Assembly: GCF_003790525.1 (NCBI RefSeq)
Contig: NZ_CP033635.1
Strand: one strand, 5' to 3'
DNA from: Escherichia coli
Lineage (GTDB): Bacteria; Pseudomonadota; Gammaproteobacteria; Enterobacterales; Enterobacteriaceae
DNA: 64,000 nucleotides
The notes under the pieces were generated by a model. The model searched no databases. It was not told where the DNA came from and worked only from the letters and a program-made list of their open reading frames with translations. Below are positions 43,637-49,151 of the stretch, piece by piece (position 1 is the first letter of the stretch; every line of letters begins with the position of its first letter). A program made the position numbers and the translations under genes.

Positions 43637-44068
43637 TTACATCCGCATGGAAACGGCCAGACGGTTAAAACAATTCATCAGCCCGATGGCAAACGTTAAG
43701 TCGCTGATCTCTGCTGCGCTGAAATGCTCAAGCAAAGGCTGATAAACCTCGTCTTCCGCATGGGTTCTGGCAATTTCGGTTACCGATTCCGCCCATGCCA
43801 GCGCCGCCCGCTCGCGTTCATCAAAATGATGGCTTACGCGCCAACCTGCCAGGGCGTCCAGTTTGTGCTGTGGCACGCCGGATTTGCGCAATGCTTTGCT
43901 GTGCATCTCCAGACAAAATGCGCAGCCGTTGATTTGCGAGACGCGCAAATAAACTAACTCCATCAACGTGGTATCCAGTGTGCTATTTTCCAGTGCCGTT
44001 TTGGCCTGCACTAGTGCGTTATACACTGCCGGGCTAAGTTCGTAGTAAGGCTGACGTAATGTAGTCAT
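43637..44068 (-). CDS. Carboxymuconolactone decarboxylase (CMD)/AhpD-like peroxidase-related protein; no K-12 counterpart at this locus
   Basis: 143-aa ORF with strong AGGAG Shine-Dalgarno; contains GCAFCLEMH (CxxC...H, AhpD-core-like); divergent from the MocR-type regulator. Confidence 0.8.
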   Translation of the reverse strand: MTTLRQPYYELSPAVYNALVQAKTALENSTLDTTLMELVYLRVSQINGCAFCLEMHSKALRKSGVPQHKLDALAGWRVSHHFDERERAALAWAESVTEIARTHAEDEVYQPLLEHFSAAEISDLTFAIGLMNCFNRLAVSMRM

Positions 44069-44099
44069 ACAGTTTCTCCTCTTATTAACGCCCGCAATG

Positions 44100-44120
44100 T
44101 AGCACTATAATGGACTGCTA
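44100..44120. promoter_or_regulatory. Inverted repeat TAGCA-N11-TGCTA enclosing a perfect TATAAT; candidate operator/promoter
   Basis: Located in the 87-bp divergent region between the CMD gene and the MocR gene. Confidence 0.3.
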
Positions 44121-44155
44121 AAGAGAGCCATAAATTACCTAAAAAAGCAGACCAT

Positions 44156-45490
44156 ATGCCGCGCTATCAGGATATCGCCCGTCAGTTAAAAACGGCTATT
44201 GAGCAAGGGGAACTGAAACCCGGCGCAAGGCTGCCTTCAAGTCGTACCTGGTCGCAGGAGCTGGGGGTGTCTCGATCCACTGTCGAAAATGCGTATGCTG
44301 AGCTGGTGGCGCAAGGATGGCTGATCAGGCGGGGACAGGCTGGCACATTTGTCAGTGAGCGGATATATCCGCAACAATCTACTGTACAAGTTGTAGCTTT
44401 TGCCGGTGAAAGTCAGCAACCGTTGCCATTTCAAATGGGATTACCCGCACTCGATCTCTTTCCGCGAGAGCTGTGGGCGCGGGTGATGGGGCGTCGCCTT
44501 CGTACCCAGACGCGCTTTGATTTGGCGTTAGGCGATGTCTGCGGTGAGGCGGCGTTGCGCGAGGCAATAGTTGATTACTTACGCGTTTCACGTGGGATTG
44601 ATTGTCAGCCAGAGCAGGTCTTTATCACTCACGGTTATGCGGCCTCAATAGCTTTAATTCTGCACGCGCTGGCGAAACCGGGAAACGGGATGTGGATAGA
44701 AGATCCCGGCTTTCCACTGATTCGCCCGATTGTCACTCGCCATGATGTGGAAATTTTGCCTGTGCCGGTTGATGACAATGGACTGGATATCACAAGCGGA
44801 ATACAAAATTATCCTGATGCGCGTTTTGCCCTGATAACACCAGCACACCAAAGTCCGCTGGGTGTGGCGCTCTCTTTAGCGCGCAGGCATCAGATACTGG
44901 AATGGGCAGATCGTAGTCAGGCATGGATTATTGAAGATGATTATGACAGTGAGTTTCGCTATCACGGTAAGCCGTTACCGGCGTTGAAAAGTCTCGACGC
45001 ACCGCAGCGGGTAATTTATGCCGGAACATTCAGCAAAGCGCTATTTCCTGCATTGCGCTGTGCGTGGCTGGTGGTGCCGGTGAAGCAAATTGCACAATTC
45101 CGCCACCAGGCGTCACTGGCTCCATGTGCGGTACCTGTTCTATGGCAGAACACACTGGCAGACTTTCTTCGCGAGGGGCATTTCTGGCGGCATCTGAAGA
45201 AAATGCGTCAGCATTATGCTCAACGTCGGCAATGGATTGAGCAAGCGTTGACGCAGCAAGGATTTCAGGTTGTGCCGCAGAAAGGTGGTATCCAGATGGT
45301 GATCAGAATGATAGGCGATGATATTGCCCATGCGCGTAAAGCCAATGCTGCAGGCCTTGCGGTGCAGGCACTTAGCGACTGGCGTATCCGTTCAAGTGGG
45401 GAAGGTGGATTACTGCTTTCGTTTACTAATATCGTTAACGAAGGTATGGCGCGACAGGTAGCACAACAATTACGTAAAGCCTTAAGCTAA
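44156..45490 (+). CDS. MocR/GabR-family regulator (GntR-type HTH fused to a PLP aminotransferase-like domain)
   Basis: 444-aa ORF; N-terminus LPSSRTWSQELGVSRSTVENAYAELVAQGWL is a GntR-type HTH; the remainder is aminotransferase fold-type-I-like. Flagged as absent from K-12 at this position. Confidence 0.8.
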   Translation: MPRYQDIARQLKTAIEQGELKPGARLPSSRTWSQELGVSRSTVENAYAELVAQGWLIRRGQAGTFVSERIYPQQSTVQVVAFAGESQQPLPFQMGLPALDLFPRELWARVMGRRLRTQTRFDLALGDVCGEAALREAIVDYLRVSRGIDCQPEQVFITHGYAASIALILHALAKPGNGMWIEDPGFPLIRPIVTRHDVEILPVPVDDNGLDITSGIQNYPDARFALITPAHQSPLGVALSLARRHQILEWADRSQAWIIEDDYDSEFRYHGKPLPALKSLDAPQRVIYAGTFSKALFPALRCAWLVVPVKQIAQFRHQASLAPCAVPVLWQNTLADFLREGHFWRHLKKMRQHYAQRRQWIEQALTQQGFQVVPQKGGIQMVIRMIGDDIAHARKANAAGLAVQALSDWRIRSSGEGGLLLSFTNIVNEGMARQVAQQLRKALS

Positions 45491-45519
45491 AAAACCCCGA
45501 AGCCAGGCTTCGGGGTCAA
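45491..45519 (-). terminator. Intrinsic terminator of ygaM (abuts the MocR-gene stop)
   Basis: ccccgaag-ccagg-cttcgggg stem followed on the minus strand by TTTTT. Confidence 0.6.
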
Positions 45520-45546
45520 AGACGCGTATTTATTATCATTTTTGCA

Positions 45547-45876
45547 TTACGATTTGCGCATGCTTAACAGTGCGCCGATAAAAATACCCACCGCTGCCGC
45601 TGTACCCACACTACACCAGGGTCTTTCACGAACAAAAGAATCCGCGCAGCCAACGGCATCGCGCGCGGCTTGCTGGACGCGAGTACGACCATGCATCCGC
45701 GCCCTGGTTTCTTTCAGTAGAGCCTGCGCTTTACTACGAGCGGCTTCGGCTTCCCCTTTGGCGTCGCTGCACCAGGACTTCAATACAGATTCGAGACTGT
45801 CAGCTAATTGATTGACATCATTCTGGATATCTTGCACGCCATCATCAACGTCGTTGCGGTTCGGTCGGTTAAACAT
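45547..45876 (-). CDS. ygaM: Ribosome-associated DUF883/ElaB-family membrane-anchored protein YgaM
   Basis: 109 aa from the internal ATG, which has a GGGGGA Shine-Dalgarno (the track ORF is 113 aa); C-terminal TM segment. Confidence 0.8.
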   Translation of the reverse strand: MFNRPNRNDVDDGVQDIQNDVNQLADSLESVLKSWCSDAKGEAEAARSKAQALLKETRARMHGRTRVQQAARDAVGCADSFVRERPWCSVGTAAAVGIFIGALLSMRKS

Positions 45877-46027
45877 ATGATCCCCCATTAGAATTCGATG
45901 TAATTTTCAGTGTAGACCATAATTTTCTTAACTGAGGTTCATCGCGGCTTTATGGACTTTTCTGAAAGCGTTGTGAATGCGCAATCAGGTAAGGTAGGCC
46001 CGCGGTTGATAATAACGAGGATCAAAT

Positions 46028-46372
46028 ATGTATTTACGACCAGACGAGGTGGCGCGCGTACTTGAAAAAGTCGGTTTTACTGTCGATGTGGTAACCCAGA
46101 AAGCGTATGGTTACCGCCGTGGGGAAAATTATGTCTATGTTAATCGCGAAGCGCGAATGGGACGTACCGCCCTGGTGATTCATCCAACATTAAAAGAACG
46201 TAGTTCAACACTGGCTGAACCCGCTTCCGATATTAAAACTTGCGATCATTACCAGCAATTTCCGCTCTATTTAGCGGGTGAACGTCATGAGCATTACGGT
46301 ATCCCGCATGGCTTTAGTTCGCGTGTTGCGCTTGAACGTTATTTGAATGGTTTATTTGGCGAAGCCAGTTAA
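46028..46372 (+). CDS. ygaC: Uncharacterized protein YgaC (DUF2002)
   Basis: 114-aa ORF with GAGGA Shine-Dalgarno; position and length match ygaC. Confidence 0.8.
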
Positions 46373-46408
46373 AGACGCGACTGGCGATGCCAGTCGCGAA
46401 AAGAAGGG

Positions 46409-46858
46409 TCAGGCTTTTACCTGCTGGTAACGGCTGACTTTAAACAGTCGGCGGCAATAATCGAGGAAGTAGCCATAAACCGCCCCCATCAACATCGAAA
46501 CAACGATGTTTGAACTGACTGCCGCCATAATCTGATGCCAGTCTGCGCCCACCACTAACAAGATCGCCACATACACCGGTGACTGGAACGTCACATAAGC
46601 CAGGATATCCGCCAGATTTTTTATCCAGCCCGACGGGCTAACTTTGCGTGCCGCGCGCATAAACAGATCGCGGTACATACCGTATGGCCATGCAATTAAG
46701 ATGTTCACCGGAATCGCTACCAATCTGGAATAAAAAGACTGTTCGAAGCTCATTCCGGAGAGGAAAACTTCAATACACATGTTCACGACAGAACAGTAAA
46801 CAACCATCGCGAACGTATCTGCAACTGCATGACGCAAGCGTGACTGCGGTGAGAACAT
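46409..46858 (-). CDS. alaE: L-alanine exporter AlaE
   Basis: 149-aa membrane ORF matching recalled AlaE. Confidence 0.85.
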
Positions 46859-47525
46859 GCTAATGCTCCTTAATAAAAGCGTAATGGGATGTTAATGGAG
46901 ATGAAAGCAGTGGATCTCATTGCCATCTGCATTTTCGCATAGCGTATATCGCTGGCTATGACTAATCAATTAGTGAAAAATTTTTATTTAATCTGTTTTT
47001 GTAGATAAAATATTCCGTAACAGCGCGTTTTTTGTACATTGTGGATTTTTACATGCCGATATGATTTATTTTTAATTAAATCAATTGGATATGTGTTTAC
47101 CTTTATTATCACTCATGAAGGTTTGGGGGTGAGGTAACGCTATAAGCGTAGAGAATTCGGTGTATGTCGTGACCGGGTCATTTTCAGCATTTTTTATGCC
47201 AGAAAATGTACATTGACAGCAGAAAGCACCAGTGAGGGGTGTTTCCATTTATTCGGTTAAATTGCATTTTTATTCATTTTTGTTTTGTCAGGCTTGCGGA
47301 ATTAGCGAGCAGAGAGCGCCGCTCTGCTCACAAATAACCGAAATTACTCATCAAAATGGCTAATATATAATCTTGAAATTATTCTGAGAGTTTCAGAAAA
47401 TAACAGCTGAAATAATCTCGCGCAGGACTGTAAATAGATTAAATTTTGTGGAAATATAATAAGTGATCGCTTACACTACGCGACGAAATACTTTTTTGTT
47501 TTGGCGTTAAAAGGTTTTCTTTATT

Positions 47526-47930
47526 ATGTCCGTAATGTTACAAAGTTTAAATAACATTCGCACCCTCCGTGCGATGGCTCGCGAATTCTCCATTGACGTT
47601 CTTGAAGAAATGCTCGAAAAATTCAGGGTTGTCACTAAAGAAAGACGTGAAGAAGAAGAACAGCAGCAGCGTGAACTGGCAGAGCGCCAGGAAAAAATTA
47701 GCACCTGGCTGGAGCTGATGAAAGCTGACGGAATTAACCCGGAAGAGTTATTGGGTAATAGCTCCGCGGCCGCCCCACGCGCTGGTAAAAAACGCCAGCC
47801 GCGTCCGGCGAAATATAAATTCACCGATGTTAACGGTGAAACTAAAACCTGGACCGGTCAGGGCCGTACACCGAAGCCAATCGCTCAGGCGCTGGCAGAA
47901 GGTAAATCTCTCGACGATTTCCTGATCTAA
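47526..47930 (+). CDS. stpA: H-NS paralogue StpA
   Basis: 134-aa ORF beginning [36 protein letters not shown], with the C-terminal [12 protein letters not shown]-binding motif. Confidence 0.9.
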
Positions 47931-47976
47931 TTACTGAGGCCGGATGCCGCCGCTATGGCGCGTCCGGCGTCGCTTC

Positions 47977-48501
47977 TCAAGCTCGTTGGTTCCACGGCAT
48001 CTTATCTAACAACCTTGCCATCCCACAAAAACCGCTAATTCCTGCAAACAGTAACCCGGCACCAACAAAGCCGCTTAATAAGAAGAAACCGCTATTTACG
48101 GTATAACCCAGTATAACGCCGATTAATATTAAACCACCCGCAGCGATCTGCACCTGGCGCATTAACGGCAAGGGTTGAGATTTATTTACCGCTACTAGTA
48201 ATCCTGCTTTTTTCCAGCCATCAATCCCATCTTCGAGTAAAAAGATTTCTGCGGGGGCGGCAATCGCTGCTAATTTATCGGCGTTATTACTGGTGCGTTT
48301 ACCTGCCTGGCAGTGGAATATAATTTGCTCGCGACGTAATTTAGCCGGAAGACCTGACTGTTCCAGCACGGATAATGGAGCCAGATCTGCTTCAGGAATA
48401 TGTTCACGAAGATATTCATCAGCGTCACGAATATCGATTAACTTTGCGCCGCGTGCGATTAATTCTTGTGCATCATGCGGCGAAATGGTTGTCAAAGCCA
48501 T
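47977..48501 (-). CDS. ygaP: Rhodanese-domain inner membrane protein YgaP
   Basis: 174-aa ORF with an N-terminal rhodanese domain (active-site Cys in FHCQAGKR) and C-terminal TM helices. Confidence 0.85.
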
Positions 48502-48510
48502 AGTGACTCC

Positions 48511-48810
48511 TTACGGACAATAGACATTTTTCAGGGTGGCGATAATGGCATTTACCGCCTCATTTTTAATGGAATATAGAATGCGTTGGGCATCCCGTTG
48601 TCTGTCGATAAGCCCTTCGTCCCGCATACGAGCGAGATGCTGTGATGTCGCAGAGGCACTCAGTCCGGTAATGCGCGTCAGCTCTCCCGCACTGGTGCCG
48701 GGGGAACCGCTAAGCATGCACAGAATCAGCAACCGTTTAGGGTGGCTCATTGCTTTCAATAAGGCCGCTGCCTGTTCGGCACTGGCCTGCAATTGCGCGA
48801 GTTCAGTCAT
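48511..48810 (-). CDS. ygaV: ArsR/SmtB-family regulator YgaV
   Basis: 99-aa ORF with an ArsR-type HTH (SHPKRLLILCML). Confidence 0.85.
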   Translation of the reverse strand: MTELAQLQASAEQAAALLKAMSHPKRLLILCMLSGSPGTSAGELTRITGLSASATSQHLARMRDEGLIDRQRDAQRILYSIKNEAVNAIIATLKNVYCP

Positions 48811-48992
48811 AGTTATTTAAGTATTTTCTAAATTAAGAAAACTCTAAACTAAAAATATAACATATGCCAGCATCAGCAGCGTAAATGAGAGTAAAAGCGT
48901 AAGCTGAAACTGGCAGGCTCCGCTAAAATTACTACGCTTAAGAGATAAAATCTCTTTTTAAACAATGAGTAATTTTCTTATAGGGAGTACAT

Positions 48993-49151
48993 ATGGGTTT
49001 CTGGAGAATCGTCATCACCATCATTCTGCCGCCGCTCGGCGTGCTGCTCGGTAAAGGGTTCGGTTGGGCGTTCATTATTAATATTCTGCTGACACTGCTT
49101 GGGTATATCCCCGGTTTGATTCACGCTTTCTGGGTGCAAACCCGCGATTAA
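48993..49151 (+). CDS. yqaE: Pmp3/UPF0057-family small membrane protein YqaE (52 aa)
   Basis: Not in the ORF track (under 60 aa); ATG with AGGGAG Shine-Dalgarno; MGFWRIVITIILPPLGVLLGKGFGWAFIINILLTLLGYIPGLIHAFWVQTRD. Confidence 0.75.
   Translation: MGFWRIVITIILPPLGVLLGKGFGWAFIINILLTLLGYIPGLIHAFWVQTRD

Follow-up and report, generated by a model that had tools for sequence, protein, structure and literature searches.

The long intergenic region between alaE and stpA of Escherichia coli as a probable shared control region of two divergent promoters bound by Lrp and H-NS

The 667-bp gap at positions 46859-47525 of the window, the term we use for the whole 64-kb stretch of E. coli DNA under analysis, lies between the start codon of alaE and the ATG of stpA (47526) and is, with a probability that we put at roughly 0.88, a shared non-coding control region of these two divergent genes to which both Lrp and H-NS bind. 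Both genes are transcribed away from the gap, the arrangement of a type-A spacer. The locus is already known and ordinary; it is the same as the one characterised in strain K-12, from which it departs by strain-level differences only. A previous reading of this DNA from its sequence alone had described the gap as lying upstream of stpA. The stpA promoter is indeed located inside it, but the region is shared with the divergent alaE gene, whose leader, promoter and upstream activating stretch take up about 240 bp (46859-47100). The gap and its two flanking genes can be divided into the following features:

46409-46858, minus strand: alaE, L-alanine exporter (name from RefSeq)
46859-46936, minus strand: 5' UTR of alaE (78 nt), bounded by the mapped start, with the Shine-Dalgarno sequence AAGGAG (complement of CTCCTT, 46866-46871)
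46937-47100, minus strand: core promoter of alaE with a conserved block of A/T tracts upstream of it; local GC content 28%
47101-47356, no strand assigned: fast-evolving spacer to which no function is assigned, with low conservation outside Escherichia and variation inside the genus; GC content 41%
47357-47448, plus strand: stpA upstream regulatory region, conserved within Escherichia and near-invariant in E. coli
47449-47484, plus strand: stpA core sigma-70 promoter, with the -35 element TGGAAA (47449-47454), a 17-nt spacer and the -10 element TACACT (47472-47477)
47485-47525, plus strand: 5' UTR of stpA (41 nt; 42 nt in K-12 through one extra T)
47526-47930, plus strand: stpA, H-NS paralogue (name from RefSeq)

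The genome of E. coli SMS-3-5 is 100% identical to the window in this region, and 5419 of the 5426 complete E. coli genomes searched contain the gap, as a single copy. On this ground, an origin of the spacer from a mobile or multi-copy element was rejected. No annotated feature lies inside the gap in K-12 MG1655, in SMS-3-5 or in 40 genomes chosen to span the range of identities. With respect to its length, the gap ranks second among the 56 annotated gaps of the window (median, 86.5 bp), and it is the longest of those that separate two intact protein-coding genes. The impression that a stretch of about 670 bp is free of any ORF of at least 60 codons was accurate; the two longest ORFs within the 667 bp comprise 55 and 43 amino acids. 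Equally well founded was its description as AT-rich and endowed with A/T tracts, since the GC content amounts to 34.9% (0.349, versus 0.509 for the window) and 22 runs of at least four A or T residues are found where composition-matched shuffles contain 10.4 +/- 2.7, a number that was reached in 1 of 2000 shuffles. Runs of at least five such residues occur ten times, against 3.4 expected. The gap thus combines a low GC content with an excess of A/T tracts, as would be expected of AT-rich DNA bound by H-NS. The further suggestion that this DNA is curved fared less well: the helical phasing of AA/TT steps is marginal, with a best period of 10.75 bp that 58 of 1000 shuffles equal after correction for the scanned periods. 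What stands of the proposed H-NS-bound curved DNA is its character as H-NS-type regulatory DNA, for which genomic SELEX data speak (see below); the sequence by itself does not establish its curvature.

In the wider neighbourhood of this locus, ygaM and nrdH are separated in the SMS-3-5 genome by two genes that are absent at that position in K-12, where ygaM is directly followed by nrdH. They code for a carboxymuconolactone decarboxylase-family protein (43637-44068) and a PLP-dependent aminotransferase-family protein (44156-45490), and the interval 43637-45490 of the window looks like a small accessory islet.

The boundaries of transcription within the gap can be taken from published maps of K-12, the coordinates of which were transferred to the window through alignment. 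By SMRT-Cappable-seq of strain MG1655, the stpA (b2669) transcript extends from 2798537 to 2798047, as given in both sheets of Supplementary Data 1, and that of alaE (b2670) from 2799086 to 2799651 (PMC6131387). The start of stpA corresponds to a G at window position 47485, which leaves a leader of 41 nt here and 42 nt in K-12, while the start of alaE corresponds to position 46936 on the minus strand and leaves a leader of 78 nt; the two starts are 548 bp apart. No further start or end inside the gap is contained in this supplement, which was searched by every coordinate prefix covering the gap. Likewise, no 3' end was found between K-12 positions 2798500 and 2799099, about 90% of the gap, in the Term-seq tables of Adams et al. 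2021 for cells grown in LB to an OD of 0.4 or 2.0 and in M63 to an OD of 0.4 (PMC7815308); the last 64 nt of the gap, which lie beyond this range (2799100-2799163), fall within the alaE leader. The closest 3' ends in these tables are the stpA terminator at 2798048, approximately window position 47973, and an end internal to stpA at 2798243, approximately 47778. In Mendoza-Vargas 2009, alaE and stpA are without entry. All these maps were obtained with wild-type K-12, a strain other than the one studied here, under a few laboratory conditions, and SMRT-Cappable-seq under-samples very short RNAs; as they stand, the transcribed part of the gap consists of the 78-nt and 41-nt leaders only. Each gene thus has one mapped start with -10 and -35 elements that are correctly spaced and conserved across genera, as befits a pair of divergent sigma-70 promoters. 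The sequence-only reading had named transcriptome data that show nothing beyond the stpA 5' UTR and promoter activity as the outcome speaking against a hidden gene; once the alaE leader is allowed for, the published maps come down to essentially this picture.

A comparison of the alaE locus across 80 enterobacterial species places these promoters into an evolutionary context. We located stpA in 57 of these species, always in divergent orientation to alaE; about 25 genera possess this adjacency, and the gap measures 475-789 bp with a GC content of 31-43% in the stpA-adjacent genomes. In a conservation profile derived from an alignment of 27 sequences, cross-genus conservation is strong over most of 46935-47060, at the TGGAAA and TACACT elements and in the ribosome-binding region of stpA, and weak between about 47100 and 47440. 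Judged from this alignment, the architecture of the gap is that of two conserved AT-rich modules parted by a spacer of about 250 bp that seems to be under little sequence constraint.

The alaE-side module is deeply conserved, with 70-90% identity across 20 non-Escherichia sequences over most of 46935-47060. The -10 element of alaE reads TATACG (complement of 46943-46948) and occupies positions -12 to -7; the CTAATTG motif in its -35 region is found at about 46964-46972. A deeply conserved palindrome that resembles the Lrp consensus, TAGCGTATATCGCTG (46940-46954), overlaps the -10 element, and further conserved elements of the block are AAATAAAAATT, TATTTTATC.ACAAAA and CAAAAAA. Within the alaE leader, the Shine-Dalgarno sequence is conserved in all genera, and the remainder is poorly conserved. 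The block is also kept upstream of alaE in ten genomes without an adjacent stpA gene, representatives of Kosakonia, Silvania and Superficieibacter included, where the elements TATTTTATC.ACAAAA, AAATAAAAATT, CTA(A/G)TTG and GATATAC.CTAT can be recognised. Its retention in these genomes argues that the block belongs to alaE and predates the adjacency of stpA; from a comparative viewpoint, the module at 46937-47100 is ancestral. A 25-aa ORF situated within the deeply conserved block is interrupted by a stop codon in K-12, and the conservation of the block is therefore to be sought at the level of the DNA. We infer that 46937-47100 serves as the main binding platform for Lrp and H-NS, with the placement of Lrp on this block being our own. 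In Citrobacter amalonaticus only, the alaE leader contains next to the alaE Shine-Dalgarno sequence a GC-rich insertion of about 130 bp with inverted repeats (GGTTGTGGGTGTACCCGCTCC...GGGGCCAGCGTAAGCGCTG...), possibly a mobile or repeat element of miniature size.

On the opposite side of the gap, the conservation of the module preceding stpA (47357-47484) holds for the genus Escherichia and, in its core promoter, extends to other genera. Among 20 sequences from other genera, TGGAAA is 70-90% conserved, as are, at about 90%, the key T and A and the final T of TACACT. The leader contains a weak Shine-Dalgarno sequence, AAAGG (47510-47514), and the conserved segment GCGTTAAAAGGTTTT. The upstream region includes the Escherichia-conserved elements GGCTAATATATAATCT and TCAGAAAATAACAG, and the entire interval 47357-47525 shows three variable sites among nine E. 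coli sequences, versus 11-12 per 50 bp in the spacer. The segment 47357-47448 is the probable site at which Lrp activates and H-NS represses stpA, an assignment to the level of a site that is made here.

The spacer between the two modules differs from them in composition, with a GC content of 41% against 28-32%, and in its rate of change. Most of the polymorphism of the gap among the nine E. coli sequences falls into 47059-47356, and within Escherichia the middle of the gap has diverged by about half, with short islands kept; two of these, AAGCGTAGAGAATTCGG (47144-47160) and CAGCATTTTTTATG (47185-47198), are specific for this genus. Between SMS-3-5 and K-12, 6.5% of the sites in 47100-47440 differ (4.6% over the whole gap), as compared with 1.3-4% of the third codon positions in alaE, stpA, ygaP and ygaV; the middle 250-340 bp accordingly evolve about as fast as, or faster than, the third codon positions of the neighbouring genes. 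In 4015 of 5419 E. coli genomes, 47100-47440 is merely 90-95% identical to the strain studied here. The spacer also tolerates an insertion of about 0.8 kb, as witnessed by one natural isolate, E. coli PK8277, in which a copy of IS1A (L092, 2770-3467) sits inside the spacer at approximately window position 47353, flanked by the alaE module on one side and by the stpA promoter on the other.

Published experiments connect this DNA with Lrp, H-NS and RNA polymerase. Lrp ChIP-seq peaks have been reported at the stpA-alaE region, together with an "Lrp-occupied stpA promoter"; with a PalaE-lacZ fusion, Lrp slightly represses alaE in minimal medium and strongly activates it when leucine, isoleucine and valine are present, and stpA, for which qRT-PCR has been reported, is activated by Lrp in minimal medium (PMC10127797). 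Ihara 2017, as cited in PMC6801825, describes an activation of alaE by Lrp that responds to L-alanine and L-leucine. Lrp gives a second ChIP peak more than 1 kb away, within the ygaP ORF (window 47977-48501); this peak is needed for full activation of stpA by Lrp, and deletion of this site affects stpA (PMC10127797). The functional regulatory unit therefore reaches beyond the gap to the far side of stpA. Atomic force microscopy has visualised the bridging of a stpA-alaE fragment by Lrp and its abolition by leucine (PMC10127797), and the primers employed in that study map to 46629-48728 of the window, so that the fragment contains the whole gap. With regard to H-NS, the spacer between stpA and alaE is marked in genomic SELEX experiments both for this protein and for the RpoD holoenzyme (PMC3946193), and stpA is known to be silenced by H-NS, to be stimulated by osmotic and temperature upshifts, and to require Lrp in minimal medium (PMC4668568).

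Scans with consensus motifs were rejected as a means to place individual binding sites on the gap, as the matches occur at near-chance density. The Lrp consensus YAGHAWATTWTDCTR matches with three mismatches at 46940-46954 and 47372-47386, at a density that corresponds to chance (95 matches in 64 kb versus 82 +/- 9), and the high-affinity H-NS motif TCGATAAATT, with up to two mismatches, behaves in the same manner; its best match in the gap, TAGATAAAAT (47002-47011, two mismatches), reads TCGATAAAAT in other genera. The promoters predicted in the SELEX study, TTTACA-17-TTTAAT for stpA and, in K-12, GTGATA-17-TCTAAT for alaE (PMC3946193), correspond to 47048-47076 on the plus strand and to about 47085-47113 on the minus strand; the latter lies in variable sequence and has TCCAAT in the strain studied here. 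Neither coincides with the in vivo start of its gene (47485 and 46936, respectively), so that other places in the gap may be bound by RNA polymerase in vitro.

In the picture that emerges, each gene is expressed from its own sigma-70 start near its own end of the gap (46936 for alaE, 47485 for stpA), with the A/T-tract blocks probably serving as the binding platforms for Lrp and H-NS. According to the cited studies, Lrp activates stpA in minimal medium, leucine switches its effect on alaE from slight repression to strong activation, and Lrp bridges the gap to the second Lrp site inside the ygaP ORF; H-NS binds to the spacer, and stpA is silenced by it. The unusual length of the gap may reflect a back-to-back pair of extended promoters under nucleoprotein control, together with neutral filler.

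The size of the gap had led the sequence-only reading to consider that an unannotated small RNA or a small protein might be hidden in it, and that reading had also noted a GC-rich hairpin at about 47305-47330. The hairpin exists, at 47307-47329; its sequence and the ORFs that bear on these alternatives are:

47307-47329, no strand assigned: inverted repeat, GAGCAGAG (47307-47314), 7-nt loop AGCGCCG, CTCTGCTC (47322-47329)
47081-47248, minus strand: ORF of 55 aa, the longest in the gap; interrupted by a stop codon in K-12
47232-47363, plus strand: ORF of 43 aa, the second longest; interrupted by a stop codon in K-12
46870-46932, minus strand: ORF of 20 aa within the leader, directly preceding the alaE gene; codon 6 is a stop in three clades of Escherichia

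Among shuffles of the gap, 0.3% contain a perfect 8-bp hairpin that includes five or more G or C residues, and 27 such structures exist across the 64-kb window. Its folding energy of -17.1 kcal/mol corresponds to a z-score of -1.7 (11 of 200 shuffles fold equally well), and the minimum-energy fold of the K-12 segment is a different structure. It is situated between both mapped starts, 155 bp upstream of that of stpA and 370 bp upstream of that of alaE, and since these starts diverge it is untranscribed on current data. A role as an intrinsic (Rho-independent) terminator was considered and rejected: a T-run is absent after the hairpin on either strand (the plus strand continues with ACAAATAACC, the minus strand with GCTAATTCCG), and no Term-seq or SMRT-Cappable-seq end maps there. 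It was not called as a terminator in a consensus promoter/terminator scan either, a scan that missed both real promoters. The perfect hairpin is found in two of nine aligned E. coli sequences, SMS-3-5 and ETEC4071; the other seven carry C47327T, which yields a G:U pair in RNA and a mismatch in DNA, along with further changes in the arms or the loop, and four other Escherichia lineages have lost pairing at four of the eight positions. Covariation was likewise discarded, as the changes on both sides of the helix reflect one deep lineage split with half of the helix broken and are not compensatory. We infer that the hairpin is an incidental, lineage-specific palindrome within filler sequence.

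Seen against this background, we regard it as very unlikely that the gap conceals a gene for an unannotated small RNA, or an RNA element acting in cis, which the hairpin would form part of or terminate. Such an element would find sufficient room in the gap, the hairpin exists and stands out from the local composition, the spacer is bound in vitro by RNA polymerase holoenzyme, the promoters predicted there differ from the mapped starts, and promoters silenced by H-NS would be invisible in wild-type cells, in which few conditions have been mapped. Yet no start besides those of the two mRNAs is listed in the published maps nor, over the roughly 90% of the gap that was checked in three conditions, any 3' end; the hairpin lacks a T-run, has an unremarkable folding energy (z = -1.7) and folds differently in K-12, and its pairs are G:U or worse in most E. 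coli, half broken in the other Escherichia lineages and devoid of covariation. A permissive Rfam scan of 45500-49000 gave chance-level matches only, the best one within the gap having an E-value of 0.58 or worse, and the surrounding sequence diverges at the pace of the neighbours' third codon positions or above it. For standard conditions, a small RNA is thereby largely refuted. The same Rfam scan returned a weak MicA-like match near the 3' end of ygaM (45517-45543; 23 bits versus a gathering score of 41, E = 1.8), which we judge to be a chance match. Somewhat less credible still is a small protein of fewer than 60 amino acids. Several ORFs of 12-55 codons can be delineated mechanically, and that of 20 codons sits in the alaE leader, but none of at least 12 codons stays intact across Escherichia, each carrying an interruption or a frameshift in K-12 or elsewhere in the genus; a Pfam scan of the nine longest ORFs of the gap gave no match, and no coding sequence is annotated there in the sampled genomes. 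Conservation, which had been proposed as a guide to a hidden gene, leads elsewhere, as the middle of the gap is fast-evolving and its conserved parts are the two promoter modules.

A different kind of explanation holds that the spacer acts through its length or architecture and not through its sequence; a long AT-rich tract would then be required for the wrapping or bridging of DNA by an Lrp hexadecamer and for the formation of an H-NS filament, and would insulate the two promoters from each other as well. As a self-standing account we consider this improbable, and it refines the best explanation instead of being an exclusive alternative to it. The fact that the gap stays long and AT-rich throughout some 25 genera agrees with it, as do the double peaks of Lrp and the DNA bridging documented at the locus (PMC10127797), and short Escherichia-conserved islands exist within the spacer. 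On the other hand, the gap is over 300 bp longer in some genera than in others, one natural strain carries IS1A inside the spacer, and the spacer is less AT-rich than the promoter modules that flank it. There is, in addition, a slim chance that the spacer holds cryptic promoters, such as TTTACA-17-TTTAAT at 47048-47076, that are silenced by H-NS or StpA in wild-type laboratory cultures. If so, a de-silenced promoter of this kind could give rise to a long-leader stpA transcript or to a non-coding RNA confined to Escherichia that extends across the hairpin at 47307-47329; it would then add a second, condition-specific layer of stpA control, for which the islands in the spacer would be the regulatory sites. 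The reading of the gap as a shared control region bound by Lrp and H-NS remains the one that we favour.

Another Lrp-regulated promoter with an extended upstream nucleoprotein complex is that of ilvIH. The closest relative of the gap is the alaE-stpA (formerly ygaW-stpA) region of K-12 itself, the same locus, in which gene order, promoter modules and the contexts of the start sites are retained; in the strain studied here, it is distinguished by the perfect 8-bp inverted repeat of the SMS-3-5 lineage and by one T fewer in the stpA leader. Like the gap, dadAX and oppA have AT-rich upstream regions of more than 100 bp with multiple degenerate Lrp sites, are subject to leucine-modulated activation or repression, and show secondary peaks of Lrp at a distance of about 1 kb (PMC10127797). 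Unlike these two systems, the gap combines two Lrp-responsive promoters that face away from each other. With the proU regulatory region, which is located in the same window, it has a low GC content, an enrichment of A/T tracts and H-NS binding by SELEX in common; it differs from H-NS-silenced regions such as that of proU in that its matches to the high-affinity H-NS motif are not strong and its phasing is only marginal.

Collectively, the gap can now be annotated with two starts, two promoter modules and a fast-evolving spacer that is apparently under little constraint, and both the hairpin and the mechanically predicted ORFs can be dismissed. The locus represents a textbook-style case of two Lrp/H-NS-controlled promoters housed in one gap and already serves as a model for DNA bridging by Lrp. 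To this, the comparison across enterobacteria adds that the alaE-side module is older than the adjacency of stpA, and that the spacer between the two promoters turns over quickly and tolerates the insertion of an IS element.
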